From: Candidatus Aenigmatarchaeota archaeon | GTDB lineage: Archaea > Aenigmatarchaeota > Aenigmatarchaeia > JACPZZ01 | DNA: 64,000 nucleotides | Assembly (NCBI GenBank): GCA_016202815.1 | Contig: JACQNZ010000004.1 | Coordinates: forward strand, 57,522 to 121,521 | Direction: 5' to 3' | Shown: positions 2,573-62,248 of the stretch, one piece after another | Layout of the letters: every line of letters starts with the position of its first letter | Position numbering within the stretch: the stretch's first letter is position 1 | The notes under the pieces: generated by a model | Seen by the model: the letters and a program-made list of their open reading frames with translations, nothing else | What the model was told of the DNA's origin: nothing | The model's database searches: none | Position numbers and translations under genes: made by a program

Positions 2573-2647
2573 AGAATAGAAATGGGCAAAATATCATACT
2601 AGGATAGTTCGTAAATTAGATTAAATTTCTAAGAACTAACTTAAAAT

Positions 2648-4689: not shown

Positions 4690-4690
4690 A

Positions 4691-5877: not shown

Positions 5878-5884
5878 ATTTGAT

Positions 5885-6472
5885 TCATGAACTCCGTTTT
5901 TTATTATTCGAAGTCAGTATTTTGAGATCTGTTCTATATTCCAAAAAGTTTAGTATAGCCATAATTATCAGCACCCAAAACATTATAGAAACGGTTGAAA
6001 AAACCATCCAAATAAAAAACCAATAAAGACCTATGAACATAGATAAAATACCGTATCTAAAAAGCCTTTTTTGCATCAAATAATAGAAACGTTTTATACC
6101 GGAAAATACATGTAACTTGTAAGAAATTAGTAAAAGAGAAATTGAAAACACCCACGCGAAAGATATGTCCACAATTGTTTTTTGATAGGGTTGTGCGCTC
6201 AAAGTCAGAATTATTGATAGCGAAGTTAGCACAAGACCACCAAATGTAAGTGAGTCGCTCGATAATTTCTCAATTTCATCTATGATGCTGTGTTGTTTAT
6301 CTTCAATCTCATCTTTTCTAAAACCAGAGTCCAAGATTTTTTTACCTATTAACTTCGAATCTGCTAAGGTTTCTATCAAGATACAAACAGCAAGACCAAC
6401 AACCGTTATTATTCCCAGATTGCTACTAACAAGACCGAATAAATAGTCTATCACTTTCCACAACTCTGGCAT
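5885..6472 (-). CDS. Hypothetical membrane protein
   Basis: 195 aa ORF with several hydrophobic segments; last gene before the tRNA. Confidence 0.4.
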   Translation of the reverse strand: MPELWKVIDYLFGLVSSNLGIITVVGLAVCILIETLADSKLIGKKILDSGFRKDEIEDKQHSIIDEIEKLSSDSLTFGGLVLTSLSIILTLSAQPYQKTIVDISFAWVFSISLLLISYKLHVFSGIKRFYYLMQKRLFRYGILSMFIGLYWFFIWMVFSTVSIMFWVLIIMAILNFLEYRTDLKILTSNNKKRSS

Positions 6473-6638
6473 TTACCATAAGAATTTTTTATTGCTTGGC
6501 AATATGGACATGTTAAATATTTTTTGACTTCTATCTCGGGTTCTCCCATAAATAATCTTTTCGTATTTTGATTGATAAGTATTACATCATCCCACTTTTG
6601 TCCAATTTCTGGGAGATATCTATATCCCATAAATTTAT

Positions 6639-6766
6639 TGGGGAAACCGTGATTTGAACACGGGTCACCGACTATCTCTAAGCTTTTCTTTCCCTCAAGG
6701 CTTTCTTTCTTGAAAAGAAAGGCTTGCCCGAAGCCGGTATCTTAGACCAGGCTGGACCATTTCCCC
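6639..6766 (-). tRNA. tRNA-Pro (anticodon CGG) candidate with about 53 nt intron after position 37
   Basis: Hand fold: acceptor GGGGAAA/TTTCCCC, D-loop AGCCTGGTCTA consensus, anticodon stem CCGGC/GTCGG with loop TTCGGG, T-arm CCGTG-TTCAAAT-CACGG, discriminator A; D-stem weak (3 bp); intron contains a 12 bp hairpin; CCA not encoded. Confidence 0.55.
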
Positions 6767-6880
6767 CTTCTTACAGGCACACACCAATATTATGCGCCAA
6801 TCGTTATAACACTCTTTCTTTTATTATGGCCATCATCTTTTAAAATAGGCTTTTATTACGGCTCCGAATTAAGTTAAATA

Positions 6881-7759
6881 ATGCGAGGTACCAGAAACAT
6901 TGTTCCGGCGCTAACAGCCTTTTTATTAGTTTTACCCATGGCGATTTCGCCTGCTCTGGCAACGGGTTACGATGTGCAGAAGGTCGATATTTCATTCGAC
7001 GTAGGCTCTGATAATTCAGTTAAGCAAACGACCAGATTCTATTTTTCAAGTCCTGTGACGGACGGTTCGATAAATTACACGCTAAACGAGCCTGTCAAAA
7101 ACATAGTGGTTTATGGTGGCAATAAACAGTTGGATAGTAAATTGGACGGTGAGGGGGACAATTATAACTTGCAGATATTTTTGGACGGACCGGTTGAGAC
7201 ATTGTTAATAACCTATTCTGCCAGCGGTATAGTGTTCCACAGCGGTTCGGTGAACCATTTATTCACACAGTTTTCCTTTGAAAAGGAGATACCGATCGTG
7301 AACTCGCAACTAAAATTGCCGACAGGCTACGAAGTCTACCAGAATTCGTACAATCCCGCCGACGGCACGATAACATCGGACGGCAAAAGTATAATCTTGG
7401 CGTGGAATGAAAGCAACGTAAGCGGTTCTATACTATTCTCGGTAAAGTACGTCAATCCGGATAAAGGTTTTATTTTTTTGGTTGCTTTTGCCTTTTTGGC
7501 CACAGGAATCGTTGCGTTTCTCTATTTCCATTTCAGGAAGAAGACAGCAGAAGCGTTTTTAAAAGGTTTCCGGGAAGACGAAAAGAAAACCATCCTGTAC
7601 CTCAGGGGCAAGCAAACCGCCTTGCAAAGGGATTTGCAGGCCGAGTTCGGCTTTTCGAGAGCCAAGTCCACAAGAATAATCTACGAGTTGGAGAAGAAGG
7701 GCCTTGTCAGGAAACAAAGGCACGGGCGGACCAACAAGTTATTTTGGCTAAATAAATGA
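6881..7759 (+). CDS. Membrane-anchored protein with C-terminal winged-helix DNA-binding domain
   Basis: Signal peptide-like N-terminus, extracytoplasmic domain, one TM helix, then basic wHTH-like tail (ILYLRGKQTALQRDLQAEFGFSRAKSTRIIYELEKKGLV). Confidence 0.5.
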   Translation: MRGTRNIVPALTAFLLVLPMAISPALATGYDVQKVDISFDVGSDNSVKQTTRFYFSSPVTDGSINYTLNEPVKNIVVYGGNKQLDSKLDGEGDNYNLQIFLDGPVETLLITYSASGIVFHSGSVNHLFTQFSFEKEIPIVNSQLKLPTGYEVYQNSYNPADGTITSDGKSIILAWNESNVSGSILFSVKYVNPDKGFIFLVAFAFLATGIVAFLYFHFRKKTAEAFLKGFREDEKKTILYLRGKQTALQRDLQAEFGFSRAKSTRIIYELEKKGLVRKQRHGRTNKLFWLNK

Positions 7760-7814
7760 CTGTTTCACGACTGTTTCAACACCCAGATTAGGATCTGAAA
7801 CGGACAATAAACCG

Positions 7815-8639
7815 ATGTCAAGAAAAGCGCAGGAGACGCTTTTTTATGACGGAGGTGGGAGCATGAAGTCGTGGATGGCAGGAATGCTGGTGGCGCTGGT
7901 AATGACAGCGCCATTAGCAGCGGGGCAGGGCATAAATACGTCTGCAAGTACGGACGTAAGGGCCGTGAACACATTGAGCCTCGGCCTGAGGCAGGTAGGC
8001 GAGTCGTTTAGCGACTTTGTCTTTCGTATAAAAGCAATTTTAACATTTGACGAAAGGGCAAGGCTGGATCTGCTAAAGGCCAGAAACGAGGAAATGAAAT
8101 CCAGGCAACACGCCTGGTTGAAAATAAAAAGCGATATGCTTGCACAGGTAAAGGCAGGCAACTTGACAGCCGAAGAAAAGCAGCAGGTAATGAAACAGGT
8201 AAAAGCCGAGCACGAGGCAATAATCAGGGAGCATTTCGGGCTGACAGCTGATATGAGAAAAATCCAGCTGAAGGCAAAAGCGCATGGAAGAACCGAGTTG
8301 GAGAGATCAGCCGAAGAGGAAGCGGATGAGGCTGAGGAATCGGATGTCTCCCTTGGGCTGAACATAGGTGCGGAGCTTAGTATCGGAGTGAGTGAAAACG
8401 TGACGGCGGACCAGGCTAAAACTCTAGTAGGAGAGAAGCTTGGTTTTGAAACAGCCGACGTTAGGACGGAGACAAGAAACGGCACTACATTTTACGTGGT
8501 GTCAGGAACAGAGACGAGCGCAGCCGGAAACTACACGCTGAAAAAAGGTTTTGAGGCGTGGGTCAGAGCCGACACGGGAATGATACATTCCTTGGGTATG
8601 GACGCCCGGTTGGACAGCGCAGTAGGAGTCAGCGTATAG
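7815..8639 (+). CDS. Secreted coiled-coil protein, hypothetical
   Basis: Signal peptide-like MKSWMAGMLVALVMTAPLAAG then charged helical repeats; true start may be the internal Met. Confidence 0.45.
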   Translation: MSRKAQETLFYDGGGSMKSWMAGMLVALVMTAPLAAGQGINTSASTDVRAVNTLSLGLRQVGESFSDFVFRIKAILTFDERARLDLLKARNEEMKSRQHAWLKIKSDMLAQVKAGNLTAEEKQQVMKQVKAEHEAIIREHFGLTADMRKIQLKAKAHGRTELERSAEEEADEAEESDVSLGLNIGAELSIGVSENVTADQAKTLVGEKLGFETADVRTETRNGTTFYVVSGTETSAAGNYTLKKGFEAWVRADTGMIHSLGMDARLDSAVGVSV

Positions 8640-8766
8640 AAAACTGCAATAGCACCCCAATAAGGTGGGCCGGCGGGACCAGAGCCAGCAGCCATAGGTT
8701 AAATTTCCGCCGGCCCATTAATTTATCAAATTAAAGGATAGGTTTGCTAATAAATTATCAAAGCAG

Positions 8767-9669
8767 ATGTGGATTGAGATGAGAAAAAATTTAATTATGC
8801 TTGTGCAGATGGTTATGCTTGCAGTATTAACCAGTCCCGTTTCCGCGCAGATCGCATCGCAATCCTTTGTTCACGTAGACTTCGCGGACGACAATTTGAC
8901 TGACGCGAAATTGGAAGTCGCGGAAACCACATTTTCGGAACCCGGGTTGTTGCCAAACCATCCGCTGTACCCTTTGAAGAGGGGTTTTGAGAATATCCGG
9001 CTTCTGTTAACGTTTGGCAACGAGAAAAAGGCCGAACTCCACCAGGAGTTTGCAAAAACCAGACTTGCAGAAGTCAAAAAACTGGTCGAAGAAAATAATA
9101 CCTTTGATGTCAAGAGGTCGTTGGACGAATTTGACAGGGAGTTGAACGATTCTGAAAACCTTTACGTTAAAATTAGGAAAAACAATTCAGTTACGACAAA
9201 AGCCAGGGAAGATTTCATGATCCAAAGTAACCTGGTTCTTGGTTCTGTATTAAAGAAAGTTCCCGAGCAATCCAAACCTTCGATAGAAAAAGTGTTAAAC
9301 AGATCCGGTGAAAGGAAATTGAACATAAAATTCAGGCCGGCCAACAGCGAGAACACAGAAAACCGCACGGAGAACGAAGAGACTGTCAAGGAAAAGACCG
9401 GGACGGAAAAGAATAAGCCCGAGGCTGTGAAAAAGAAAACCGAGAGATCGGAAGTATGCATACAGGTCATTACACCTGCGATAAGTCCTAGCGGGGAGTG
9501 CAAGGAATTCCCGACGCCTTGTGATGTTCCGAGAGGGTGGAAAAAAGTAAGCGCATGTGAACCGGATACAACGCAGAAAAAACCGGAAAAGTCGGGCGAG
9601 TCCACGATGAAAAGTCCCTTGGATGTTCCTTCTAAGGTTCCGGGTGTAAAGAAAATTATCGGCCTTTAA
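8767..9669 (+). CDS. Secreted protein, hypothetical
   Basis: N-terminal signal peptide, charged middle, Cys pairs near C-terminus. Confidence 0.45.
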   Translation: MWIEMRKNLIMLVQMVMLAVLTSPVSAQIASQSFVHVDFADDNLTDAKLEVAETTFSEPGLLPNHPLYPLKRGFENIRLLLTFGNEKKAELHQEFAKTRLAEVKKLVEENNTFDVKRSLDEFDRELNDSENLYVKIRKNNSVTTKAREDFMIQSNLVLGSVLKKVPEQSKPSIEKVLNRSGERKLNIKFRPANSENTENRTENEETVKEKTGTEKNKPEAVKKKTERSEVCIQVITPAISPSGECKEFPTPCDVPRGWKKVSACEPDTTQKKPEKSGESTMKSPLDVPSKVPGVKKIIGL

Positions 9670-19867: not shown

Positions 19868-21736
19868 TTGAGATTATACGAAGGCACTGTACAAGAGTTC
19901 AAGAAAGATGTGATTGAAAATCGAATAGCTGACATTCTTTCAGAAAACTATTTTATTCAAATTAAAAAAAGGGTAACCCCGTCGGAACAGCGGTCTTGGC
20001 AGGTCTCTCTTAGGGTACTAAAAGATACGCTTGACATATCTGGTTTATTACAAAATAAAATTGTTATCGAAAATAGGCTTCCGTACACAGAGAGGAGGAT
20101 AGATGTGCTTCTATTTGGAAAAGGATATGACGGAACTGATAGGATTGTGCTAATAGAACTGAAGCAATGGTCAAATGATAATGTTTTTGATGATAACATA
20201 GATGGAAATGTTGAAGTCTATTTCGGTAAGAACAAAATACATAGAGAACACCCTTCACTACAGGTACAAGGATATGTCATTGATTTGCAGGATTTCATGA
20301 AATTTTTTAGTGAGATTCCTAGGGTTAATTTAGAAGGGTGCTCTTATTGTCACAATTACAGCAAAAAAGATAACGCTATATTGTTCGCTGAAAGATTTTC
20401 TGAACCCCTGGAAAAATACCCGCTTTTTTCAAAGGAAGATGCTTATGAACTTGGAAACTATCTAAAAGAAAGACTTTCGATTGATCCGGGTTTCGAAGTG
20501 TTTAATAGATTTGATAATAGTGAGATATTTCCGTCTAAGAAACTGTTGGATCACATCGGGGATATGATCAATAAACAGCAAATGTTCAATTTGATCGACG
20601 ATCAAATAGCAGCCTATAATGTGATTATGGATAGAGCAAAAAAACAGGTAAAGCGAAAAGAGAAGTCTGTTATAATTGTAAAGGGGGGTCCAGGCACTGG
20701 AAAATCGGTGATAGCATTGGAAGTTATGGGCGAACTGCTTAGAAAAGGAAAAAAAGTTTTTCATGCCACGGGTTCATCGGCATTTACAAAGACCTTACGA
20801 GATTTGATAGGAAAAGAGAGAAAAAGTGCAGAGAACTTTTTTAAATTCTTTTATGCTTTTACCAAAGCACCAGCAGACGATATAGATGTGCTCATATGTG
20901 ATGAAGCACACAGAATCAGGAGTAATAGCAATGACTGGGGGGTGCCCAGCATGTACAAATCAAAAAATCCTCAAATTGATGATCTTATCAGACCTGCAAA
21001 ACTTTCCGTGTTTTTTATAGATGAATATCAGGTGGTCAGACCCAATGAGGTGGGCAGTATAGCATTGATTAAAGAGTCTGCCAAAAAACTTGGTGTTAAG
21101 GATTCGGAAATATTTGAATTCGAATTAAAAACACAGTTCAGATGTTCCGGCTCTGATACTTATCTGCAATGGTTGGAGAATACGCTCGGTATAAGGGAAT
21201 CTGAAAATGTAATTTTGAATACAGATCTGATGGAATTTAAAATATTCAATTCACCACAAGAATTTTATGACGCCATAAAGCAGAAAAATAAAGAAAAACC
21301 CAACTGCGCGAGAATAGTAGCTGGTTTTTGCTGGCCTTGGAGCAAACCGAATAAAGACGGCACGTTGGTGAATGATGTGGTTATCGATGGTTTTAGTATG
21401 CCGTGGGAAAAGAAAGATGAATTTTGGAAATGGGCCAGAGACTCGTCAGGAATGGAACAGGTGGGTACAGTTTATACATCGCAGGGGTTTGAGTTTGATT
21501 ACATAGGTGTAATATTCGGAAAAGATCTCGTTTATGATTCCACCAGCCAAAAATGGGAATGCAAACCAGAAAATTCGTACGATAATACTGCGAAAAGAGG
21601 AAATTCAAAGTTTACTGAACACCTTAAGAATGTTTACCGTGTTTTGATGTCAAGAGCACACAAAGGTTGTTATGTTTATTTCATGGACAAATCTACGGAA
21701 GAATTTTTCAAATCACGAATAGAAGGATCTAAATAG
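19868..21736 (+). CDS. PD-(D/E)xK nuclease fused to SF1-type ATPase/helicase (DUF2075-like)
   Basis: N-terminal RIDVLLF...IVLIELKQW nuclease-like motif; Walker A KGGPGTGKSV; Walker B/DEAH-like ICDEAHRI; C-terminal TVYTSQGFEFDYIGVIFG helicase motif. Confidence 0.65.
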   Translation: MRLYEGTVQEFKKDVIENRIADILSENYFIQIKKRVTPSEQRSWQVSLRVLKDTLDISGLLQNKIVIENRLPYTERRIDVLLFGKGYDGTDRIVLIELKQWSNDNVFDDNIDGNVEVYFGKNKIHREHPSLQVQGYVIDLQDFMKFFSEIPRVNLEGCSYCHNYSKKDNAILFAERFSEPLEKYPLFSKEDAYELGNYLKERLSIDPGFEVFNRFDNSEIFPSKKLLDHIGDMINKQQMFNLIDDQIAAYNVIMDRAKKQVKRKEKSVIIVKGGPGTGKSVIALEVMGELLRKGKKVFHATGSSAFTKTLRDLIGKERKSAENFFKFFYAFTKAPADDIDVLICDEAHRIRSNSNDWGVPSMYKSKNPQIDDLIRPAKLSVFFIDEYQVVRPNEVGSIALIKESAKKLGVKDSEIFEFELKTQFRCSGSDTYLQWLENTLGIRESENVILNTDLMEFKIFNSPQEFYDAIKQKNKEKPNCARIVAGFCWPWSKPNKDGTLVNDVVIDGFSMPWEKKDEFWKWARDSSGMEQVGTVYTSQGFEFDYIGVIFGKDLVYDSTSQKWECKPENSYDNTAKRGNSKFTEHLKNVYRVLMSRAHKGCYVYFMDKSTEEFFKSRIEGSK

Positions 21737-21791
21737 GAATATTATCGGAGTATACGGGGGTTATAATTCAGAGTATTGATTGAATAATCAA

Positions 21792-22163
21792 TCATCTTTT
21801 TTTATATCCAAAATATTTTTCATAGGTTCTATGGGAAATTGCATCAAGGACTATTGCCAGTATTTCGATCTCGTTTGTGTGTAAAGTGTATATCAACCGC
21901 CAGCCATCAAAAAGATCAACTTTCCAAAGATTGTTCACATCCGCCATTGTGATGTATCTTTTTGGTATGTATTTTTTGGGTATCTGAATCCCTGAAATGG
22001 GATCAATTTTGAGTTGGTCAATGGCCACCTTGATAGAGCTGAACAATTTTTGTTTTTCAGAATCGACTATGCCCCGTTTTGTTTCATTTTTGACCTCTTC
22101 GTGCAATTCATGTAATTCAGCAGCAACTTCTTTTCTGTTTCTCACCCTGATTCGTTTAATCAC
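21792..22163 (-). CDS. RelE/ParE-family toxin (putative)
   Basis: C-terminal LWKVDLFDGWRLIYTLHTNEIEILAIVLDAISHRTYEKY fits the RelE/ParE pattern. Confidence 0.5.
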   Translation of the reverse strand: MIKRIRVRNRKEVAAELHELHEEVKNETKRGIVDSEKQKLFSSIKVAIDQLKIDPISGIQIPKKYIPKRYITMADVNNLWKVDLFDGWRLIYTLHTNEIEILAIVLDAISHRTYEKYFGYKKR

Positions 22164-22435
22164 GTTTCAGTGCCTTCTCTGATTATTTTGTCAAGTTTAG
22201 GACTAGGGTTGTATGTCCAAATAACACCCTTATGACTATCAATGATCATACCATGATCCTCAAAGTAACTGAGAATTACATTCAATGTCTGATGCATGAT
22301 TTGAACCGGTAACTTTCGTTTGATTTCTTCTCTGCTTATAGCAACGTCAGAGTCCTTTAGAACTTTCTCTACCATACGGACAGTTCTTAGAGTCGGTGAG
22401 TGCAAAATCTCTTGAGTTTGAAGCTTGTTCTTCAT
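22160..22435 (-). CDS. Putative antitoxin
   Basis: 91 aa ORF immediately upstream of and overlapping the toxin by 4 nt; classic TA arrangement. Confidence 0.4.
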   Translation of the reverse strand: MKNKLQTQEILHSPTLRTVRMVEKVLKDSDVAISREEIKRKLPVQIMHQTLNVILSYFEDHGMIIDSHKGVIWTYNPSPKLDKIIREGTET

Positions 22436-22582
22436 AGTTATATCATTATACAGATATCTATATATAGTTATACATAGTAGTAATAATCGTTAAATGTGAC
22501 CTAAGTAGACGTTTTGGGTTTTATTTTCTGTGATTAAAGTCGCCTTGTTGTGATTTTAGTCGTTGTTTTCGGTTACTTTAAG

Positions 22583-22607
22583 CACAAGGCTCCCCCCCCC
22601 CGCGGCG
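22583..22607. repeat. Direct repeat copy 1: ACAAGGCT + C(10) + GCG
   Basis: Same 8 bp core plus poly-C and GCG recurs at 26676-26693. Confidence 0.6.
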
Positions 22608-22980
22608 TTGTAGAGGAAGTCTACTAAATTGACGTACATTAGATACGGAATGGGGACTTTAGGTACAAAACGCCGAAAATAGTTGTCTATTTATTTATCA
22701 AGCAATGAATGGTGATTATTGTCGTCTTAATCGACGGTTTGGCTCTGATCTTCCTGAAAAATAGGGGGATCTTAAATGAAATCGAGAACTTATTCGGGCG
22801 GATCAGAGCTTTGGCAGTTTTAAAAAACGTTGATTGACGTATTTTATTATTTAAATGTCTAAGGTCTAATTATAAAGCGAGATGATCATGGTAAACTGCC
22901 ATGCTATCACCTACAAATAGACTTTATAGGCTGTAATCAGCTTCGCTGGTCGCCTATAGGGGATGAGGCGCGTCGCGCAT

Positions 22981-23631
22981 TTATTTTTTATATTTTTTAA
23001 ATAATTCAATGAAACATTTCGGATCAGGACTTATGTTAATGGTTCTGAAATAATTAAAATTTCTAAGGGTTTCTGCATTTATTTTTCTATGGGATGCTGC
23101 AATGTAATCTGCGAATTTTAGAAGTTTTGTATGCTTTGCATTGCTAACGGAAAAATCAAAATTTCTATTGAAAGAATTACTTATTCTCCTACAACTGTCT
23201 AGCGCTTTGTTTATGTTCATCCAGCTTTCTTCACAAAATACTATATCGTATTTAAGTTCTTGTTTAGATTCTGGAAATGTCATTTGACGCAGTAAAGTGA
23301 AATAATAAATTGCTATTAATCTTTCTTTGAAAAAAGCCTCCTCACCATAATTTCTTTTATAATTAACCCAATCTTGTTGACTTATGGATATTGATCGCAT
23401 TCTAATCTTCCTTTCATCAAAAAATCTTATTATTCTTTCAAGATCTGTTGCGTCTAATTTTACTCCTTTCCATTTAGATCTTTCAAATTCTTTCAAATGT
23501 TCAGAAAATTCCTTTTCTATTTTAGTTATCGAATAAGTTGGTGAGGAAATAGAACCTATAAAGATTTTGTCATACGGTACTCCACTGATATCTATTGCGA
23601 TCTTAATTGGTACTTGTCCCATACAAATCAC
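22981..23631 (-). CDS. Hypothetical protein
   Basis: 216 aa, AT-rich, no motif recognised. Confidence 0.35.
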   Translation of the reverse strand: MICMGQVPIKIAIDISGVPYDKIFIGSISSPTYSITKIEKEFSEHLKEFERSKWKGVKLDATDLERIIRFFDERKIRMRSISISQQDWVNYKRNYGEEAFFKERLIAIYYFTLLRQMTFPESKQELKYDIVFCEESWMNINKALDSCRRISNSFNRNFDFSVSNAKHTKLLKFADYIAASHRKINAETLRNFNYFRTINISPDPKCFIELFKKYKK

Positions 23632-23714
23632 CTGTTTAGAGGGTTATATTAAAGCGGTGGTAGTTGTCTGAATTATCAACTATCTTTTAAATCAGTCAAC
23701 TTCGTTTATTTTTA

Positions 23715-24689
23715 CTAATCACTAATACTCATATTCAGATTTATACTATAATCTTGAGATTCTTTGATCAGTACGCAGATGTTGTGTGATAATATCTTGC
23801 ACAGTAGTTCATTCTCTTGTGCAGTTCTATTCTTTGATTTCAACGAATCTCCAAACTTAGCTTTAATCATAGAGAACGTGCTCTCGATGTTGCTTCTTCT
23901 ATGATAGTGAGCCATAAATTCCGGTTGCCTGAATTTGAAATAGTGATACATTTTATGCCAAATTGGCGAGCCTTTGCTCTTTCCTGTGGTGTTTACTTTA
24001 AACGGAATGAACGCTTCCACGCCCAACTTATCAACGATTTTGTAATTTTCTCTTGATAGATAGGCTTTGTCCGCCGAAACCTCTTCTACGTTGAAATCTT
24101 GTACGGTTTCTTCTACCAATGGACTGAATTGTTTAATATCCGCTCCGTTTTCATCTGTGATTCTAACAGCGGTTATCAAGTTTGTTTTTGTTCCACAGAT
24201 CGCATGACACTTCAGCCATTTATGTTTCCTTGATAATCCATGCTTTACGATGCAGTATTCCGTAAATCTCGTTGTTCTGAAGCCTGTTGAATCTACGGCG
24301 AACTGAGTTTCTAAATCCTTCAAAGGTAAAGCTGTGAGAGTTATCAATCTGTGGAGTATTGGTGTTATTGTTGGATTGTTCAAAACCTTAGAGGTAGCTG
24401 TGAAATGCGGTGATTTCTCGATTATTTCATCTTCTTCGGCATTATCGAACAGACCGTTAGCCCTTCGGCACGACATCATAGAGTAGACTTTCTTGATAGA
24501 ACAAAACAACAAATCTCTAAGAGGTAAGGTTGGTCTGCCGAATTTGTATTCCGGTTCTTCGACACCTTCGAGTAAGTCTTTCAGAAGAACGTCAAACTGG
24601 TTTAACTCCATACACTGTGCTCTATTGTAAGCTGGCCAGTTCTGGGTGCTTTGTTGTTTCCAGAGGTCTTGTAACGGATTGTTTTTCAT
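23715..24689 (-). CDS. IS4/IS5-family DDE transposase
   Basis: DDE_Tnp_1-like C-terminal block YHRRSNIESTFSMIKAKFGDSL...KNRTAQENELLCKILSHNICVL. Confidence 0.75.
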   Translation of the reverse strand: MKNNPLQDLWKQQSTQNWPAYNRAQCMELNQFDVLLKDLLEGVEEPEYKFGRPTLPLRDLLFCSIKKVYSMMSCRRANGLFDNAEEDEIIEKSPHFTATSKVLNNPTITPILHRLITLTALPLKDLETQFAVDSTGFRTTRFTEYCIVKHGLSRKHKWLKCHAICGTKTNLITAVRITDENGADIKQFSPLVEETVQDFNVEEVSADKAYLSRENYKIVDKLGVEAFIPFKVNTTGKSKGSPIWHKMYHYFKFRQPEFMAHYHRRSNIESTFSMIKAKFGDSLKSKNRTAQENELLCKILSHNICVLIKESQDYSINLNMSISD

Positions 24690-24746
24690 AGTGTTATTAG
24701 GTACCTATAAATATTTAAATAGATAGGTACCGAAAGATTATATGTT

Positions 24747-24914
24747 ATGAAGCTTCAAAAACAGCTTTCTCGCAAAGCCGGAAACGTTGTATATCCCAAG
24801 TGGGTCATTGTAATATCCCCTAAAGATATAGATAAACTGGGCTGGAAAGAAGGTGTTGAACTGGAATCAGAAACAACACAAAACAAGTTATTGTTGAAGC
24901 CTAAGAAAAATTAA
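24747..24914 (+). CDS. AbrB/SpoVT-like small DNA-binding protein (putative)
   Basis: 55 aa ORF below the track cutoff: MKLQKQLSRKAGNVVYPKWVIVISPKDIDKLGWKEGVELESE... resembles swapped-hairpin AbrB/MazE-type domain. Confidence 0.3.
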   Translation: MKLQKQLSRKAGNVVYPKWVIVISPKDIDKLGWKEGVELESETTQNKLLLKPKKN

Positions 24915-24932
24915 ATTTTCGTGCCCTTAAAA

Positions 24933-26120
24933 TTATTTACTGTTTGTTAATCTGTTTAACTCTTTTATCATTTCGGATATTGGAATTTTTTTATCGGCTC
25001 GCACTAGTTTTTCTATAAGTTCTATTTGAGTTTGGGTAAATCTGGGGCTAAGGTTTTTACGTAGATGATTTTCGAGTAACCATAAATCTTCAAACGATCT
25101 CTCATTACTCCAAGGTGCATTTCTTATGTATTTTTGTATCATCTTCTCTGTATAGGCTATTTCTATTGGGATTATGTAAATCTCGGGACACTTGCTCCTA
25201 AGGAAAGATTCTATGGTGTTTGGTGTAACCGAATAAACTTCACTCAGAATTTCGTCTTCTATTATTTTTTTGTATCTTTTCCTTGATGGTTCATTTTCGT
25301 GTCCTTCTTTAAACAGGCTGTAAACCGTTGTACCTACATGACTTACAACTTCTCCTGTTTGATGACCGCTTTCTAACCATCCTTGAAAATCTTTGTTCTT
25401 CAGGTCTATGAAATCCACGAGTTTTATGCTATTAGAACCTCCTCCTTGTCTCCAGTTTCTTATCCATCCATCACAAACCAAGCTCCATATAGGTAAGAGA
25501 CGGGAATTAATTATTTTTCTATCACCGGAAAATATCATGGGCACAGCTACACAGAATACGCGTTTGCCCGTCATCATCTTGAAGAACACTATTTTCTTAC
25601 ATATGGAATCGAACGCTGGATATTGTCCATAATGAACTCCGTAGAATAGTGCCAAATGATCAAATTTCTCGGATTTAGCTGCCGGTATTATTTGATTCTG
25701 TATGACGACATCTTCTAACTTGTAAGACACCTCGAGTATTATGTCTTTTTTAGAAAACCCTCTTTTCAGGATTTCGGCCAGTTCTATTTTTTCAACTACA
25801 TCGTACTCCGTTTCGTCTTTGAAGTATGGCAATATTATGAACTCTCCGTTCATTTTTATCTGCTCTTCAACGACACTCTTCAATATTTTCTTCGAGAATG
25901 TAAGATACGAACAATCGGGATAATTAATTACTCCCATATTCTCATTTATCTGATCATTGACTTTTTCGAACGGCTGATCTTGATTAGTTTTGTTGAAGAA
26001 AACTTGTCTTTCCACGAATTCTATTTGCATGTCGTCCAGATCGGATGTCTTGAACATCCTAAACGGAGCGCGTAAAACTTTTCCACTTTTAGTTTGTAAA
26101 TTATCTTCCATCTTTAACAT
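24933..26120 (-). CDS. Hypothetical protein, 395 aa, no recognisable family
   Basis: Long ORF last in a three-gene minus-strand operon. Confidence 0.4.
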   Translation of the reverse strand: MLKMEDNLQTKSGKVLRAPFRMFKTSDLDDMQIEFVERQVFFNKTNQDQPFEKVNDQINENMGVINYPDCSYLTFSKKILKSVVEEQIKMNGEFIILPYFKDETEYDVVEKIELAEILKRGFSKKDIILEVSYKLEDVVIQNQIIPAAKSEKFDHLALFYGVHYGQYPAFDSICKKIVFFKMMTGKRVFCVAVPMIFSGDRKIINSRLLPIWSLVCDGWIRNWRQGGGSNSIKLVDFIDLKNKDFQGWLESGHQTGEVVSHVGTTVYSLFKEGHENEPSRKRYKKIIEDEILSEVYSVTPNTIESFLRSKCPEIYIIPIEIAYTEKMIQKYIRNAPWSNERSFEDLWLLENHLRKNLSPRFTQTQIELIEKLVRADKKIPISEMIKELNRLTNSK

Positions 26121-34287: not shown

Positions 34288-34464
34288 TAATTAGTTCAAA
34301 AAGTATTTATATCAGAAACATAAAATAAAAGTACTACTACAATCAGACTTCTGGACAAAGTTTGATTGATTTGAATCGGATCTGTCTGGACAACAGATTT
34401 TGATTAAGTTTGTGCGCAACTAAATTTCTTCAGAGTTGTTAATGTTTTGCTTCTTAGCGGTGAT

Positions 34465-34512
34465 TAGAAAACCTCTGGGTTTTCTAATTGAGAAAACAAT
34501 TGGTTTTCTCAA
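34465..34512. promoter_or_regulatory. Two adjacent palindromes upstream of ftsZ (TAGAAAACC-N4-GGTTTTCTA and TTGAGAAAAC-N5-GTTTTCTCAA)
   Basis: Read directly; same half-site family as the GGAAAC/GTTTCC palindromes elsewhere. Confidence 0.45.
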
Positions 34513-34615
34513 TGGACGCACCGATAAGAAATTTTTCTAAAGAATAATGGTGAAGCTGGAATAAAAAGTTTTGGGTCCAAACTTTTGGACAAAGTTTTGC
34601 CTAAGGCAAAACGTG

Positions 34616-34639
34616 CATAGGAAACTGAAGTTTCCTATG
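34616..34639. promoter_or_regulatory. 24 bp perfect palindrome CATAGGAAAC-TGAA-GTTTCCTATG upstream of ftsZ
   Basis: Read directly; related copies at 41973-41996, 56874-56897 and a half-site at 62235-62248. Confidence 0.5.
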
Positions 34640-34771
34640 AAGTTTGATCAAAAAGGCGATTTTGGCCGATCGGGGCGCATAATGTGCGCACGAAAGTTAT
34701 TGGGGGTGCGGAAGTTGAGTTTGCTTCAGAACGCCTTTGAAAAGGCGTACGGGTACAAGGAAACAGGGAAC

Positions 34772-35836
34772 ATGGAAAAATTTGACATGAAAACTTTAGA
34801 GGAGAAGATTGCGAGCGAGTTTGGCATCGAAGTCAAGAAAGCTAAGATAATGGTTTTCGGCTGCGGAGGCGGTGGCTGCAACACCATCTCACGATTAACG
34901 GAGATGGGAATCGACGGCGCTGCTACGGTAGCTATCAATACTGACGCCAAAGCGTTGGCGATGACAAAGGCTGACAAGAAGATCCTGATAGGAAAAGAAA
35001 TAACGCGCGGCCTAGGAGCCGGGGGTTATCCTGAGATCGGGAGGAAATCCGCTGAAGAGTCAAGGCAGCAGATCAGGGAATCCATCCAGGGCTGCGACAT
35101 GCTATTCGTTGTGGGTGGCATGGGCGGCGGCACAGGAACAGGGTCAGCGCCTGTCGTTGCGCAAATTGCAAAGGAGATGGGCTCGATGGTAATCGGAACA
35201 GTCACGATGCCTTTCAAGATCGAAGGCGCGCGGATTGTCAAGGCCGAAGACGGTTTGAGCCGCTTACGCGAGAACTGCGACAGCGTGATCGTTATCGAAA
35301 ACGATAAGCTGCTGGAGTTTGCGGGCGATTTGCCGCTTCAACAGGCTTTCGCGCTTGCGGACGAGTTGGTAGCGACCATGATCAAGGGCATTTCGGAAAC
35401 GATTAGCCAGCCATCGTTGGTCAATTTAGACTACGCTGATGTGAAGGCTATAATGCATTCCGGAGGCGTTGCAGCGATCGGGTTTGCGGAATCGTCGACT
35501 TCGAACCGGGCCGAAGACGCTATCCAGAAAGCGTTATCGAATCCGTTAATCGAGGTTGAATATGCCGGCGCTTCGGGCGCTTTGGTGCATATCACAGGCG
35601 GTGCTGACCTCAAGCTGGACGAAGTGAACGTCATAGGCGAATACGTTTCGAAACAACTCGACCCGTCGGCCCAGGTTGTCTGGGGCGCGCGTGTGGTTCC
35701 GAATTTCGGCAACAAAGTGCAGGTGATAACAATCGTAACCGGAGTCAAAAGCCCGTACATACTCGGGCAGGCTTCTGTGGAGCGATTGCAAACGTCTGAA
35801 GTGTCTTCGGAGCTTGGAATCGAGATATTGCGATAG
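34772..35836 (+). CDS. ftsZ: Cell division protein FtsZ
   Basis: GGGTGTG tubulin signature and FtsZ-like flanking blocks; start placed at ATG 34772 because the longer listed ORF runs through the upstream palindromic promoter region. Confidence 0.85.
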   Translation: MEKFDMKTLEEKIASEFGIEVKKAKIMVFGCGGGGCNTISRLTEMGIDGAATVAINTDAKALAMTKADKKILIGKEITRGLGAGGYPEIGRKSAEESRQQIRESIQGCDMLFVVGGMGGGTGTGSAPVVAQIAKEMGSMVIGTVTMPFKIEGARIVKAEDGLSRLRENCDSVIVIENDKLLEFAGDLPLQQAFALADELVATMIKGISETISQPSLVNLDYADVKAIMHSGGVAAIGFAESSTSNRAEDAIQKALSNPLIEVEYAGASGALVHITGGADLKLDEVNVIGEYVSKQLDPSAQVVWGARVVPNFGNKVQVITIVTGVKSPYILGQASVERLQTSEVSSELGIEILR

Positions 35837-35907
35837 AACAACGGTCTTGAGGCAGGTAGGCGAGATAGCCTACCTGCCGATTATTATTTTTTAAATTTTT
35901 GCTGGAA

Positions 35908-36411
35908 TTAGAACTTGTATTCTTCCAATTTGTGAAGTCTGGTCACTAAAACCTCTTTCCAATCGCCGATAATATCCGAGAAGTTTTGCCTGATCTCGTT
36001 TTTCTTTTTTTCAATGTCTTCAGTGCCTGCGGCGAGTATCACAATGTAGAGGTCGTAATCGCCAGCCATTGACATCAGGTCTATTACGCGTGGGCTGGCT
36101 CTCAGGTATTTTATAAATTCTTCGAAACGCGACTGATTAAAATTCTTGAACTTCACGTAGATGTGAACGCCTAACGGAAGCCCTATTATCCCCGTATTTA
36201 CCTGAATTGTGTATTTTGTTATGATCCCGCTCCTTTCCAATTTCATGATCCTTTTTTTGATAGAATCCACGGAAAGGCCGATTTTTTTCGATATCTGCGT
36301 CAACTTTGTCCGCGCGTTTTGTGACAGGATGTTTAGGATGTCGCGGTCTGTCCTGTCTAATTCCCTGTTTTTCGGAGGTTTTTCGTCTTCTTTTTTAAGA
36401 TTTTCGTCCAT
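35908..36411 (-). CDS. Lrp/AsnC-family transcriptional regulator
   Basis: N-terminal HTH (DRDILNILSQNARTKLTQISKKIGLSVDSIKKRIMKLE) plus C-terminal RAM-like domain. Confidence 0.7.
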   Translation of the reverse strand: MDENLKKEDEKPPKNRELDRTDRDILNILSQNARTKLTQISKKIGLSVDSIKKRIMKLERSGIITKYTIQVNTGIIGLPLGVHIYVKFKNFNQSRFEEFIKYLRASPRVIDLMSMAGDYDLYIVILAAGTEDIEKKKNEIRQNFSDIIGDWKEVLVTRLHKLEEYKF

Positions 36412-37728: not shown

Positions 37729-38523
37729 TTACTCGGCCGAATTCCACAAGAAGTTGAAGTAATTGCCCAAAACATTGGCCGAGGCGTGTTCTGACCTTGT
37801 CCAGAACGCCAAATCCTGCGACTGGTGTTCTGCGTCGTCCGTTAAAGCCACGAGCGACTGCTTGTTGTCCACGATGAAAACGCGGCCGGACGGGTTCGGT
37901 AATTTCCTTACCTCTGCGATCTGGCCAAGCGCCTTGAACGCTTCAGCAGCTTCGCCTTTGTGATGGGCTGCGATCTTTATCGCGATTCCGCTGTCCTTTG
38001 CAGCTTTCAGTGTATCGTAATGGTTGATGTGCAGGTCCTTTAAACCCTGCGATGTTGTTATGATCTGGATGCTGCTTTTTGCGCCTTTGATCATTGCGCC
38101 CACATGCTGGAACACGGAATGGCGGCCCCTTACGGAACCGGTTATTTCCGATGGTTCGACCAGTTTAACGCCGTGGTTGTACAGCTCGGACATTTCCTTT
38201 AAAACGTCGGAGTTCTTTAGCTGTTCGATCTTTTTCATTGTCATTTCCATGTCGATTTTCAGTTTCTGGGATGCGCGGTCCAAAGCCTCTTTTGGGTCCA
38301 CTGCGACATAACGCAACGGCTTGGCGTTTTGTGCGACCAAAAAGCCCTTCGCTGCAAGCGATTCCAGGACGTCATAGCTGCGCGAGCGGGGTACGCTGGC
38401 TATTTCGGCCAACTCGCCGGCTGTGGATGTGCCGCGGGCCAGCAAAGCGACGAAAAGCTTGCGCTCGTAAAGGTTAAGCCCGATATCACGCAGCGAATCA
38501 AGGACTTTTTGCGAAACGACCAT
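37729..38523 (-). CDS. TrmB-family transcriptional regulator
   Basis: N-terminal wHTH (LYERKLFVALLARGTSTAGELAEIASVPRSRSYDVLESL) plus TrmB-like C-terminal domain. Confidence 0.65.
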   Translation of the reverse strand: MVVSQKVLDSLRDIGLNLYERKLFVALLARGTSTAGELAEIASVPRSRSYDVLESLAAKGFLVAQNAKPLRYVAVDPKEALDRASQKLKIDMEMTMKKIEQLKNSDVLKEMSELYNHGVKLVEPSEITGSVRGRHSVFQHVGAMIKGAKSSIQIITTSQGLKDLHINHYDTLKAAKDSGIAIKIAAHHKGEAAEAFKALGQIAEVRKLPNPSGRVFIVDNKQSLVALTDDAEHQSQDLAFWTRSEHASANVLGNYFNFLWNSAE

Positions 38524-41501: not shown

Positions 41502-41912
41502 ATGTTTAAGGGCGTAACGCCTGTAATAGCAACTGTTATGCTTATTCTGATAACGGTTGGCGTTGTCGGCCTATTTTATGGCTGGTCCTCGGGACTTTTT
41601 AACACACAGATTGAAAAGTCGGTCATAATACCGTCCGGGGCTGCCACATGCAACAACGGGTTAGTTACGGTGCGAGTCCAGAACATTGGAAGTTCAAGCA
41701 CAGTGACTGACAGCGACATCATCGTTGCGCAAATAGCGGGTAGAGAGTGCACTAAAGCTGCGTTAAGCATAGCGCCCGGACAGGCCGGCGTAATAATCAA
41801 TGCGCAGGGATGCGGTGCGGCATGCGCCACAGGCACGCTTTGCTCCGGCAATGTTGAAGTCCGCGTTGGGACGCGCACAGGCGTTGTCGAATCGACAGCG
41901 TTCTGCGCCTAA
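41502..41912 (+). CDS. Archaeal type IV pilin-like protein (class III signal peptide)
   Basis: N-terminal KGVTPVIATVMLILITVGVV matches the archaeal pilin/archaellin prepilin leader pattern. Confidence 0.5.
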   Translation: MFKGVTPVIATVMLILITVGVVGLFYGWSSGLFNTQIEKSVIIPSGAATCNNGLVTVRVQNIGSSSTVTDSDIIVAQIAGRECTKAALSIAPGQAGVIINAQGCGAACATGTLCSGNVEVRVGTRTGVVESTAFCA

Positions 41913-41950
41913 GCTTTTTTCTTTTTTAAAAAAAGAAAAACCCTCAACAA

Positions 41951-41996
41951 CGAAAATCGTTAGATTTTCGTGTGTAGGAAACTAAAGTTTCCTACA
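41951..41996. repeat. Composite double-palindrome element (CGAAAATC-GTTA-GATTTTCG followed by TGTAGGAAAC-TAAA-GTTTCCTACA)
   Basis: Read directly; homologous 46 bp element at 56852-56897. Confidence 0.6.
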
Positions 41997-44372: not shown

Positions 44373-44547
44373 TTTGTTTTGGCCTCTCTACCATAACGCT
44401 TAGTAAGATTAAAATCTCTTTCAGAAGCTTGAAGAACTCTTCCCTGCTTAATTTGGCCTGTTTAAGTATTTCACCCAGCATGTGAGGGTTTATCTGCTTC
44501 CTTCCGTGGACCGGGATTGGTATACTTCTTCCATCAGCATGTTCCAA
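44362..44547 (-). CDS. HicA-like toxin remnant (no canonical start codon)
   Basis: C-terminal IPIPVHGRKQINPHMLGEILKQAKL resembles HicA; reading frame stays open a further 22 codons upstream with no ATG/GTG. Confidence 0.3.
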   Translation of the reverse strand: MEHADGRSIPIPVHGRKQINPHMLGEILKQAKLSREEFFKLLKEILILLSVMVERPKQNAD

Positions 44548-44617
44548 AATGAGATGGCCTCCTGACTTCTGAAGAACCTTTAACAGCTTATCGATAGCTA
44601 TGGTTATAAGCCTCGTT

Positions 44618-44920
44618 TTACTTCACCTCGATAATCTGTACACCGACGAATTCGGTTTTCTCGAAGCGTTTCTTTAACCCGAAGCATATTCCTATAACCT
44701 CCCGGATGTTTGCAACCAGCTTGCCAAGAGTTCCCGCCTGCGTAAAGCAGCCGGACAGGGAAGGCACATACCCAACGTAGCATCCTGTTTCCCCTTTTTC
44801 CATAATCGCTGTGAATGTTTTACGGGAACCTTTCGTTAGTTTTATTATCCTCACGCCTGCGAATTCGCCGTATGGAGCGCCGCCTTCCGCTTTCAGACAG
44901 CGCCTGATGGCCGTTATCAC
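44618..44920 (-). CDS. HicB-like antitoxin, C-terminal half (split by frameshift)
   Basis: FTAIMEKGETGCYVGYVPSLSGCFTQAGTLGKLVANIREVI HicB/UPF0150-like; GTG start overlaps stop of upstream ORF at an A7 tract. Confidence 0.45.
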   Translation of the reverse strand: MITAIRRCLKAEGGAPYGEFAGVRIIKLTKGSRKTFTAIMEKGETGCYVGYVPSLSGCFTQAGTLGKLVANIREVIGICFGLKKRFEKTEFVGVQIIEVK

Positions 44921-45129
44921 ATTTTTTTAAGCCTGTCAAGTGTTTCAGCCCTAATTGAACAATCAGGAAATCCGGCAACCGTACCGATGTAGAATTTCCT
45001 GCCTTTCTCTATCACGACGGTAAATTTTTTTGCCATGTTCGTTAAATTAGTATCCGGTTGGCGGGTTAAATACGCTTCAAATTCCAGTTGTTTTAAAATT
45101 GCGGCTCCGAAGCTACCAGTTGTCGTCAT
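44917..45129 (-). CDS. HicB-like antitoxin, N-terminal half (split by frameshift)
   Basis: KFTVVIEKGRKFYIGTVAGFPDCSIRAETLDRLKKM HicB-like; continues in the next frame across the A7 run. Confidence 0.45.
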   Translation of the reverse strand: MTTTGSFGAAILKQLEFEAYLTRQPDTNLTNMAKKFTVVIEKGRKFYIGTVAGFPDCSIRAETLDRLKKM

Positions 45130-45279
45130 CCGAAAACGATCCAGGTGTCATTTATATCGTTAATATTTCATGCCTGAATCGTTTTCACGTCGGACTGGGA
45201 CGGTAAATCTTCGTCATTGCCGGAATTGTGTTGTGCACACAGATATATAATTTGAAAACTATCGAGTAATTCGGATCAC

Positions 45280-56531: not shown

Positions 56532-57248
56532 TTATTCCCCGCGGCACGATAATAAGCATTTTTTTATTTTGGCCCCTGATATCGGGCCTTCGCGGACCGT
56601 TTTCATGGTAATTAAATTAAATATTGTCGAGACCTTCCGTTTTGGGAGACTGCCTGTATTAATGATCGCGTCGGCTTTCTTGGCGAAAAGAGCGAACGCT
56701 TCCGGGAAGCTGTAGACAGGCTTTTCGCCTGATATGTTTGCGCTGGTGGCGGTTATCGGTTTCTTGAATTTTCCGGCAAGCGACAGCGCAAAACGATTGG
56801 CTGGTATGCGAAATGCGATTTCGTTTCTTGGCGACCCGGCCAGCTGTTTCTGCGAAAATCGGCTATTTTCGCGTATAGGAAACCGAAGTTTCCTATATTT
56901 TGGCCTTGCGACCAATGTCAACGGACCAGGCATGAATTCTTCGACCAAGCGTTTCCCGTCCTCATCAAGCGAGACATACTTTTCCGCGATTGCCGTGGAA
57001 CCGAATATAACCGAAAGCGGCTTTTTCGAAGAGCGTTTCTTGATCTTGTAAACTTTTTTTACGGCATTTCTATTCGTCGCGTCACAACCTATTCCGTAGG
57101 CTGTTTCTGTAGGATATATTACCAGGCCGCCTTTTTTCAGGATTTCCACGGCCTTTTTGATTCCTCGCGCATCAGCGCGCAAAACAAGCGTCTCCATACA
57201 GTTTTTTATGTCAGGAACATGGATTTTAAGCATGAATGAGGAGCGCAA
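56532..57248 (-). CDS. tsaC: L-threonylcarbamoyladenylate synthase (Sua5/YrdC/TsaC family)
   Basis: YPTETAYGIGCDA, PGPLTLV and ATSANISG blocks; carries an apparent in-frame copy of the double-palindrome element. Confidence 0.8.
   Translation of the reverse strand: MRSSFMLKIHVPDIKNCMETLVLRADARGIKKAVEILKKGGLVIYPTETAYGIGCDATNRNAVKKVYKIKKRSSKKPLSVIFGSTAIAEKYVSLDEDGKRLVEEFMPGPLTLVARPKYRKLRFPIRENSRFSQKQLAGSPRNEIAFRIPANRFALSLAGKFKKPITATSANISGEKPVYSFPEAFALFAKKADAIINTGSLPKRKVSTIFNLITMKTVREGPISGAKIKKCLLSCRGE
56852..56897. repeat. Composite double-palindrome element inside tsaC coding sequence (GCGAAAATC-GGCT-ATTTTCGC followed by TATAGGAAAC-CGAA-GTTTCCTATA)
   Basis: Read directly; aligns with the intergenic element at 41951-41996. 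Confidence 0.6.
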
Positions 57249-60453: not shown

Positions 60454-60864
60454 GTGATTTGGGTGAAAATCGTTATCTCTGAGCCAGCGACGAGAAAGGC
60501 TTACCAGCTTGAAATTGATAATACCAAAAGCGCCGCGCTCATAGGCAAAAAGATAAGCGAGGATTTTTCAGGCGATTTGATAGGGTTGAACGGTTACACG
60601 CTGAAAATAACCGGCGGCTCTGACAACGGCGGTTTCCCTATGAGGCCGGAAATACCCGGAAGCGCAAGGAGGGCCTTCCTTTTGAAAGGCGTTCCTGGAT
60701 TCCACCCGAGGATAAAAGGCCAGCAGAAAAGAAGGTTCGTTTGCGGCAACATGGTTTCGCAGTCAATTGCGCAGGTAAACGTCAAGGTAACGAAAGCTGG
60801 CGAAAAGAAGCTTGAGGAAATAATTCCGAAAACGGAGAAGAAAGAGGAAGCGCCGAAAAAATAA
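60454..60864 (+). CDS. rps6e: Ribosomal protein S6e
   Basis: ITGGSDNGGFPMRPEIPGSARRAFLLKGVPGFHPRIKGQQKRRFVCGNMV matches the eS6 core. Confidence 0.75.
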   Translation: MIWVKIVISEPATRKAYQLEIDNTKSAALIGKKISEDFSGDLIGLNGYTLKITGGSDNGGFPMRPEIPGSARRAFLLKGVPGFHPRIKGQQKRRFVCGNMVSQSIAQVNVKVTKAGEKKLEEIIPKTEKKEEAPKK

Positions 60865-60948
60865 GCCTTCTCTTTTTAAAAAAAGAGAATCCTTAAGGGA
60901 AGAGAAAAAAACTAGGAAAATCCTTAAGGGAAAAGAAAAACTTGTTGG

Positions 60949-62208: not shown

Positions 62209-62234
62209 GCTTTTTGACTAGAAAACTTAATAGT

Positions 62235-62248
62235 GGAAGTTTCCTACA
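62235..62248. promoter_or_regulatory. Half-site copy GGAAGTTTCCTACA of the palindrome family
   Basis: Shares GAAGTTTCCTACA with the 41973-41996 copy; lies about 45 bp upstream of the 62291 ORF. Confidence 0.35.

Follow-up and report, generated by a model that had tools for sequence, protein, structure and literature searches.

A short double-hairpin DNA repeat of Candidatus Aenigmatarchaeota that is best read as a small selfish mobile element

The double palindrome that lies between a pilin-like ORF and a DUF424 gene in the 64,000-nucleotide stretch of archaeal DNA analysed here (the window) is probably one copy of a family of short, non-autonomous palindromic repeats which is confined, as sampled, to a Candidatus Aenigmatarchaeota clade. 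The best reading of our data is that this element behaves like a small selfish mobile repeat of the REP/BIME or RPE type and not like a gene switch. We establish that the family exists, has defined boundaries and constrained hairpins, is gained and lost, is nested in other palindromes and forms a read-through insert in one gene. A reading made from the sequence alone had offered either a regulon or a small repeat family. The latter is supported by the 21 copies that we recovered and by their gain and loss at orthologous sites.

The gene content of the window (aIF2-beta, aIF2-gamma, Lrp, TrmB) is archaeal, and its Sua5 protein has a counterpart of 100% identity in an NCBI Candidatus Aenigmarchaeota MAG. 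Two features were delimited in the spacer between ORF 41502-41912 and the DUF424 gene:
41948-41996, plus strand: full double-hairpin element of 49 nt, hereafter W1 (covariance model 75.7 bits, E = 4e-16).
41916-41940: T-run/A-run hairpin of 11 bp directly after the stop codon, TAAGCTTTTTTCTTTTTTAAAAAAAGAAAAA; context only.
W1 is made of a CAA leader, hairpin 1 (CGAAAATC-gtta-GATTTTCG), tg, and hairpin 2 (TGTAGGAAAC-taaa-GTTTCCTACA). Hairpin 1 occupies 41950-41971, with a 9-bp stem and a GTTA loop, and is followed by a G; hairpin 2 occupies 41973-41996, with a 10-bp stem and a TAAA loop. The letters at 41951-41996 are exactly those of the double palindrome originally described. The element starts 36 nt past the stop codon of ORF 41502-41912, which encodes the pilin-like protein, and splits a CCCTCAA^GG motif. 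The ATG of the DUF424 gene at 42073, first placed about 80 bp away, is 77 nt downstream, and the NCBI-annotated start, as judged from the 98 aa of protein P0121, about 100 nt. With up to three mismatches allowed, the hairpin-2 pattern is found twice in the window for 0.00 occurrences expected from shuffled sequences, which is far beyond chance. The T/A hairpin looks like an oligo-T terminator, and the same arrangement of T/A hairpin and element recurs in loci L007 and L021.

The repeat unit is 48-50 nt long and is organized as C-(A/T)-(A/G), hairpin 1, G, hairpin 2. The first hairpin has a 9-bp stem, usually CGAAAATC, and a free loop of 3-6 nt; the second has a 10-bp stem, YRYAGGAAAY/RTTTCCTRYR, and a free loop that is usually of 4 nt (3-6 overall). 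We analysed the pairing of 21 distinct copies aligned by fitting to a covariance model; a hand-checked alignment of 12 copies gives the same picture. Standard pairs fill 99.2% of the stem cells. Changes on both sides were observed at 12 of the 19 pairs, with 51 compensated cells. In 500 shuffles, the real figures were never attained for the number of paired cells, for the numbers of pairs and of cells altered on both sides, or for the covariation score; the count of further pair types was attained in 23. When partner columns were slid as controls, pairing fell to 22-54% of cells. At one pair of hairpin 1, 12 copies have A-T and 9 have G-C, and the outer three pairs of hairpin 2 appear as TGT/ACA, TAT/ATA, CAT/ATG, CAC/GTG or TGC/GCA. 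The AGGAAA/TTTCCT core is invariant in the 21 copies, while loops vary freely. G-U pairs occur in 2 of 399 cells, versus 3 outright mismatches. The perfect Watson-Crick symmetry of both strands, the presence of copies in both orientations and the free loops all point to a hairpin or palindrome at the DNA level rather than to a strand-specific RNA. Some variants are shared by unlinked loci of one genome: TGCAGG is found twice in JAIYHQ, and CGAAAAGC together with TATAGG on two JACPAF contigs. Coexistence of the G-C and A-T variants of the same pair in one genome is in keeping with a constraint on hairpin structure and not with co-evolution with a regulator. No inverted repeat links the two ends of the element, CAACGAAAA... 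and ...TTTCCTACA.

To delimit the family, one genome per prokaryotic species was scanned with the pattern TNTAGGAAACNNNNGTTTCCTANA, which returned 17 loci. Six belong to Candidatus Aenigmatarchaeota MAGs (JACPAF01, JACOVS01, JAZDLW01), and at all six hairpin 1 directly adjoins hairpin 2. The other 11 are scattered among bacteria, as chance predicts, since about 9 chance matches were calculated for this pattern. A stricter junction pattern revealed four further copies, all on contigs of groundwater metagenomes. We then built a covariance model from 12 copies, and it detected more of them in loci that had been fetched via proteins, independently of the element. DNA obtained in this unbiased way amounts to about 141 kb and gives 8 matches scoring 40 bits or more, about 1 per 18 kb. 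In all, we recovered 21 distinct copies from at least 7 Candidatus Aenigmatarchaeota (DPANN) MAGs and from groundwater contigs. No match to the element was found among viral contigs (IMG/VR), and none to Rfam 15 at gathering score in the window or in six related loci, so that an Rfam RNA family was rejected as its identity. A link to a tRNA in the window was likewise discarded, ARAGORN finding no tRNA there. Tandem Repeats Finder run over the whole window and a repeat search of positions 1-9000 detected no CRISPR array, and copies of the element are dispersed; a CRISPR relationship was rejected on the absence of an array from the window. The literature searched contained no account of repeats of this type from Aenigmatarchaeota or DPANN, an absence which is not proof.

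Besides full copies, the window holds more distant relatives of the element in a divergent spacer:
34590-34639, plus strand: diverged family member (covariance model 37.7 bits, E = 5e-7).
34463-34512: related double hairpin of another subfamily, ATTAGAAAACC-tctg-GGTTTTCTAAT then TGAGAAAAC-aattg-GTTTTCTCA.
The first is laid out as CAA, GTTTTGCC-taa-GGCAAAAC, gtg, CATAGGAAAC-tgaa-GTTTCCTATG, and is nested, with CAAACTTttgga on one side and AAGTTTG on the other. Together with a hairpin at 34564-34586, both form a BIME-like cluster, and the module pair of 34463-34512 recurs in L021 at 8797-8845, within a stretch delimited as 8773-8845. Five to six perfect hairpin modules can be counted between 34463 and 34640 (TTAGAAAACC, TGAGAAAAC, AAAAGTTT, GTTTTGCC, CATAGGAAAC). 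The TTG start listed for ORF 34571-35836 falls within this hairpin cluster, and the real start is probably elsewhere.

Comparison of orthologous sites revealed reciprocal presence and absence of the element between relatives. At the W1 site, the spacer between the pilin-like and DUF424 genes measures 83 nt in L025 and 60 nt in L026, both without the element. The promoter-proximal part of these spacers aligns with the window, which has an extra block of about 100 nt comprising the T/A hairpin, CCCTCAA, the element and then GGTAAAAAGAAAAAG; the T/A hairpin 41916-41940 is thus part of the block that the orthologous spacers lack. At the SHMT site, two tandem elements stand just upstream of the SHMT TATA box in L025; the orthologous spacer of the window aligns on both sides and contains no element. 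These data show that, between orthologous sites, the whole unit comes and goes as one discrete piece.

The second full copy of the window lies within a gene:
56850-56897, plus strand: full element of 48 nt, hereafter W2 (covariance model E = 4e-13).
Its hairpin 2 is at 56874-56897, with a variant of hairpin 1 just before. The host is the minus-strand ORF 56532-57248, which encodes a threonylcarbamoyl-AMP synthase of the Sua5/YrdC family (Sua5/TsaC). W2 is antisense to the mRNA and in frame, and its 16 codons encode YRKLRFPIRENSRFSQ. In an alignment with 14 Aenigmatarchaeota homologues, these residues form the sole 16-residue insert unique to the protein of the window, between the invariant motifs PGPLT and FRIP. 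At the DNA level, the insert corresponds exactly to the 48-nt element: the syntenic gene of JACPZZ01 is continuous across the site, and those of JAIYHQ01 and JAIYFL01 have the short length too. An identical insert is present in an independent Logan assembly (locus L022), showing that it is not an assembly artefact. In the AlphaFold2 model of the window protein (mean pLDDT 85.9), the insert is a loop with pLDDT values of 56-60, dropping below 50 at residues 107-114, bracketed by confident strands 93-99 and 127-130. Its low pLDDT is partly expected, because homologues leave the corresponding alignment columns uncovered. The insert thereby lengthens a surface loop of Sua5/TsaC, a position where an added segment would be tolerated. 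The reading frame is open throughout and the insert is most likely translated, as happens with intragenic REPs and Rickettsia RPEs (PMC3733652); reading through it in frame would yield the peptide YRKLRFPIRENSRF.

A third site in the window shows a copy in decay:
62219-62248: decayed remnant of a lone hairpin 2, cTAGAAAAC-12 nt-GTTTCCTAca (8.2 bits, below significance by itself).
A half-site upstream of another gene had been reported here. Its sequence, GTTTCCTACA, is indeed present at 62239-62248, and it is the 3' arm of the decayed hairpin 62219-62248 rather than a half-site. Taken as a bare 10-mer this match is weak: about 0.1 exact matches are expected per 128 kb by our estimate, and at one mismatch 7 matches were found versus 3.3 expected. 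The partner arm cTAGAAAAC stands 12 nt upstream, and 7 of 8 bases pair. The spacer following aIF2-gamma contains a full element in L027 (3906-3953), is empty in L029 (32 nt), and is 48 nt longer than the latter in the window, where it holds the remnant. Because the partner arm is there and this spacer is full in one relative and empty in the other, we identify the 62239 site as the better-preserved arm of a decayed copy.

Copies of the element occupy tandem, convergent (L029 17982) and divergent spacers in both orientations, as well as one ORF and tRNA introns; those of W2 and L010 are antisense to their host or flanking genes. Several have landed in pre-existing palindromes. In L019 the unit is found within the loop of the hairpin CATGAAAAC/GTTTTCATG, which is uninterrupted in L001 and L002; in L014 a 12-bp hairpin has it in its loop; in L020 it interrupts TTTGA^TCAAA, which is unsplit in L018 and at window position 34640. 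Flanks able to form helices of at least 6 bp were observed for 5 of 22 copies, versus 2.1% of control junctions. Nine of the 22 split CCTTAA^GG(N)AAAGAAA and have CTTAA as their 5' flank, the flanks of the others being varied (TCAA, TTGA, AAAA, TTTT). No target duplication was detected as direct repeats in the flanks of the 22 copies. Comparisons of filled and empty sites at Sua5 and at CCTTAA^GG independently gave the same boundaries, with no need for a duplication. Empty targets were observed in the window:
60890-60897 and 60922-60929, plus strand: two unfilled target motifs CCTTAAGG(G)AA(A)AGAAAA, after a T/A hairpin (60868-60889) past a stop codon.
The unfilled motif also exists in L019, L021 and L007.

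A recurrent block follows stop codons. It is composed of TAAGC, a T-run/A-run hairpin and at least one CCTTAAGG with a purine run (GAAAAGAAAAA), and is found in the window at 60864-60940, 41910-41945 and 6679-6725, and also in L007, L019 and L021. This block, in which the element lands preferentially, may constitute a terminator plus an additional signal.

In L001 and L014, the element resides within a long anticodon-loop intron of the initiator tRNA-Met gene. These genes (CAT anticodon; L001 5422-5712, plus strand; L014 about 2340-2090, minus strand) were missed by both ARAGORN and Rfam. They possess two to three introns: the anticodon-loop intron is about 150-170 nt long and packed with hairpin modules, L001 has in addition a 59-nt T-loop intron with a clean bulge-helix-bulge motif, and L014 a D-arm intron.

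Could the copies be sites of use to the host, that is, palindromes bound by a dimeric DNA-binding protein such as a regulator, a nucleoid protein or an insulator factor? Recognition of the AGGAAA core by a sequence-specific protein is likely. This core is invariant in 21 copies, and stems are near-identical in genomes whose proteins are about 65% identical, a strong constraint that a host function could explain equally well. Moreover, several copies end 15-40 nt upstream of TATA-like boxes and many come after oligo-T terminators. We nevertheless consider this explanation unlikely, since copies are found inside a coding sequence, a tRNA intron and the convergent spacer of L029, their presence differs among orthologous promoters, and their orientation and distance to gene starts vary. 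Compensatory arm changes coexist within one genome. Neither the fixed order of hairpins 1 and 2, with its leader and linker, nor the insertion of copies inside other hairpins is a feature of operators. The regulon initially envisaged was rejected as the identity of the element, on the orthologous-site comparisons and on the copies in Sua5/TsaC and in tRNA introns: the site is not conserved at the orthologous DUF424 and SHMT promoters (W1 empty in L025 and L026, SHMT filled in L025 only) and has no fixed position. The proposal had rested on a recurring position upstream of plus-strand genes, which did not hold, as the other full copy of the window is inside a minus-strand gene and copies elsewhere occupy every kind of spacer. 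Nor does anything link the element to the nearby Lrp (35908-36411) and TrmB (37729-38523) genes, whose products had been put forward as binders: the TrmB gene is syntenic in relatives whether the element is present or absent.

Strong covariation over two helices would also be expected of a structured RNA module, whether a small RNA or a part of a UTR with a role in transcript stabilisation or processing. The RNA fold is far more stable than those of shuffled sequences (z = -4.5), many copies are directly 3' of genes, and bacterial REPs do act as mRNA stabilisers (PMC3733652). We find this quite improbable given that Rfam yields no match, that copies are in both orientations relative to flanking genes, with W2 and L010 antisense, and that W1 and the copies of L007 and L021 are downstream of T-run terminators. 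The rarity of G-U pairs, no more frequent than mismatches, leaves no strand-specific signature; the loops are unconstrained and a conserved promoter was not seen. For W2 alone, an archaeal bulge-helix-bulge (BHB) intron of the Sua5 pre-mRNA, cut by the tRNA splicing endonuclease, was considered, as the length of the insert is divisible by three and the same element is present in the tRNA-iMet introns of L001 and L014. A scan which recovers the true intron in the T-loop of the L001 tRNA (5 bp in both the outer and the inner helix) detected no BHB with cuts at or near the insert boundaries (ORF positions 351 and 399), and the sole in-frame candidate nearby would remove the conserved FRIP motif. 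In the tRNAs the element is a passenger within a much longer intron, and in Sua5/TsaC the frame does not close. A BHB intron is thus highly improbable and was rejected for W2.

The preferred reading, a small selfish mobile repeat, can be put as a sequence of steps. The hairpins would form in single-stranded or extruded DNA, where an enzyme specific for both sequence and structure would recognise them and copy or move the unit, much as HUH tyrosine transposases do with REP and IS200-type elements. Recognition may depend on the invariant AGGAAA core, and the symmetry of the arms would be maintained either by selection for recognition or by repair within the hairpin. The unit lands in hairpin loops, palindromes and CCTTAA^GG sites and leaves no target duplication. 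Copies persist where they do little harm: in spacers, in a tRNA intron that is spliced out and, read through in frame, in a single surface loop of Sua5/TsaC. A role for the host, for instance in forming barriers or insulators behind oligo-T terminators, would be secondary. Against transposition of the 49-nt unit as the only mode of spread, 9 of 22 copies share extended flanks (5' CTTAA; 3' GG/CC-AAAGAAA). Spreading could therefore be due in part to duplication of a larger composite, or to conservation of a functional intergenic module.

No transposase or other mobilising gene was found near the copies. For HUH, Y1 and RAYT proteins, a phmmer search with the RayT of E. coli and a simple scan for the HUH..Y motif returned only noise over 211 kb of Aenigmatarchaeota DNA, which represents part of each genome. 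A TnpA(Y1)/TnpB partner sharing the end hairpins was not encountered in the fraction of the genomes sampled. RAYT classes have been reported from Bacteria only and are described as absent from Archaea, where IS200-type TnpA is the only Y1 class reported (PMC6006769). The DDE insertion sequence at 23715-24689 of the window was dismissed as a parent, its inverted-repeat candidates being unrelated to the ends of the element. Contig L021, with hairpin clusters at both ends, was examined as a mobile element and rejected, as it is a pilus-type ATPase locus.

The low-GC islands of the window contain a solo Cas1, a Schlafen-like helicase and ORFs without family, and no Y1 or TnpB genes. Cas1 is a 396-aa protein encoded at 3499-4689 on the plus strand (Pfam E = 8e-63; TIGR00287 E = 1e-60), in an island of 36-38% GC versus about 49% elsewhere. 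Its neighbours (2648-3502, 4691-5314, 5311-5877, 5885-6472) do not match Cas2, Cas4 or any other family. It could be a solo Cas1, a casposase-like protein or part of an unrecognised module. The second island, 19868-26120, comprises a Schlafen-group-3-like helicase (19868-21736), a DDE_Tnp_1 transposase (23715-24689, minus strand) and ORFs without family match, and is probably foreign or defence-related DNA.

A more specific proposal, which we put forward tentatively as a possible though doubtful one, is that Aenigmatarchaeota carry a RAYT-less REP-like system, in which a two-hairpin DNA module would be spread into hairpin loops and palindromes by an enzyme class new to such repeats. Candidates would be a Y1 enzyme of IS200 type that acts in trans, or a nuclease or integrase of another kind; a solo Cas1 is encoded in the window. 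Some copies may have been domesticated, for example as barriers behind oligo-T terminators or as a new surface loop of Sua5/TsaC, the t6A enzyme. If true, this would be the first REP/RPE-type system described in Archaea.

We compared the element with known families of repeats. REP units are 20-40 nt long and typically exceed 100 copies per genome. Their mobilisation depends on RAYT (TnpA-REP) HUH transposases, and a cognate RAYT gene with the repeats on its flanks constitutes a REPtron. The element resembles REPs and BIMEs in its two perfect stems of 9 and 10 bp that form stem-loops, its dimers and clusters, its insertion within palindromes, its in-frame copy and its compensatory stem changes. 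REPs are short palindromes, paired or clustered, mostly extragenic and frequently 3' of genes, sometimes within larger palindromes and occasionally intragenic in frame; their abundance differs among related genomes and their stems show compensatory variation (PMC3733652). Unlike them, the element has an archaeal (DPANN) host and is a fixed heterodimer of two unrelated perfect hairpins 1-2 nt apart, and no RAYT was found in the 211 kb searched. It also has no conserved unpaired GTAG/CGTC tag: GTAG exists only as paired stem bases where the variant is TGTAGG, and the TATAGG, CATAGG, TGCAGG and CACAGG variants have ATAG, GCAG or ACAG instead.

As with RPE, we are dealing with a palindromic repeat of a reduced-genome symbiont, in frame in an essential gene, W2 adding its residues between conserved strands of Sua5/TsaC. 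Classical RPE-1 is roughly 100-150 nt long. The element is much shorter, has no sequence relationship with RPE, is intragenic in only 1 of 21 copies and has an archaeal host. IS200/IS605 derivatives have subterminal hairpins, insert without target duplication and use single-stranded DNA. Miniatures of this type, such as the PATEs of Haloquadratum, share with the element the status of a non-autonomous archaeal repeat dominated by hairpins and lacking target duplication. They differ from it in that its two hairpins are dissimilar, its unit is only 49 nt long, and neither a single conserved tetra- or pentanucleotide target (CTTAA in 9 of 22) nor a TnpA/TnpB partner with matching ends was seen in the DNA sampled. 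Classical MITEs have terminal inverted repeats and target duplications, both of which are lacking here. Among Archaea, MITEs have been described in Sulfolobus, Halobacterium, Haloquadratum and other lineages (PMC10969869). With TrmB/Lrp operators the element has in common an inverted repeat with a short spacer that can stand upstream of a promoter. In contrast to such operators, it is not conserved at orthologous promoters, is present inside genes and an intron, keeps a fixed two-hairpin architecture and shows compensatory arm changes in one genome.

REP, BIME and RPE repeats have been described as a bacterial phenomenon. The present family is new, and in a new lineage, but of a kind already known. 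It indicates that reduced symbiont genomes of both domains converge on the same kind of genomic parasite, and raises the question of which archaeal enzyme moves hairpin modules. In practice, the copies can be used to type strains and are one reason why contigs of these MAGs break. They also call for caution in annotation, as an essential tRNA-modification enzyme has gained 16 residues from the element, and introns bloated by it let the initiator tRNA escape ARAGORN and Rfam.

Two further features of the region were recorded. A perfect 11-bp GC-rich hairpin at 35851-35878 (GGCAGGTAGGC-gagata-GCCTACCTGCC), whose sequence is unrelated to the repeat family, stands between the convergent ORF 34571-35836 and Lrp gene 35908-36411. 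In related MAGs, PIN and HicA/HicB toxin-antitoxin genes are inserted at varying points of the syntenic region:
L025 12339-13789 and L023 6267-9186: toxin-antitoxin insertions, compared with window 44400-45260.
The toxin-antitoxin genes of L025 adjoin its two-element cluster.
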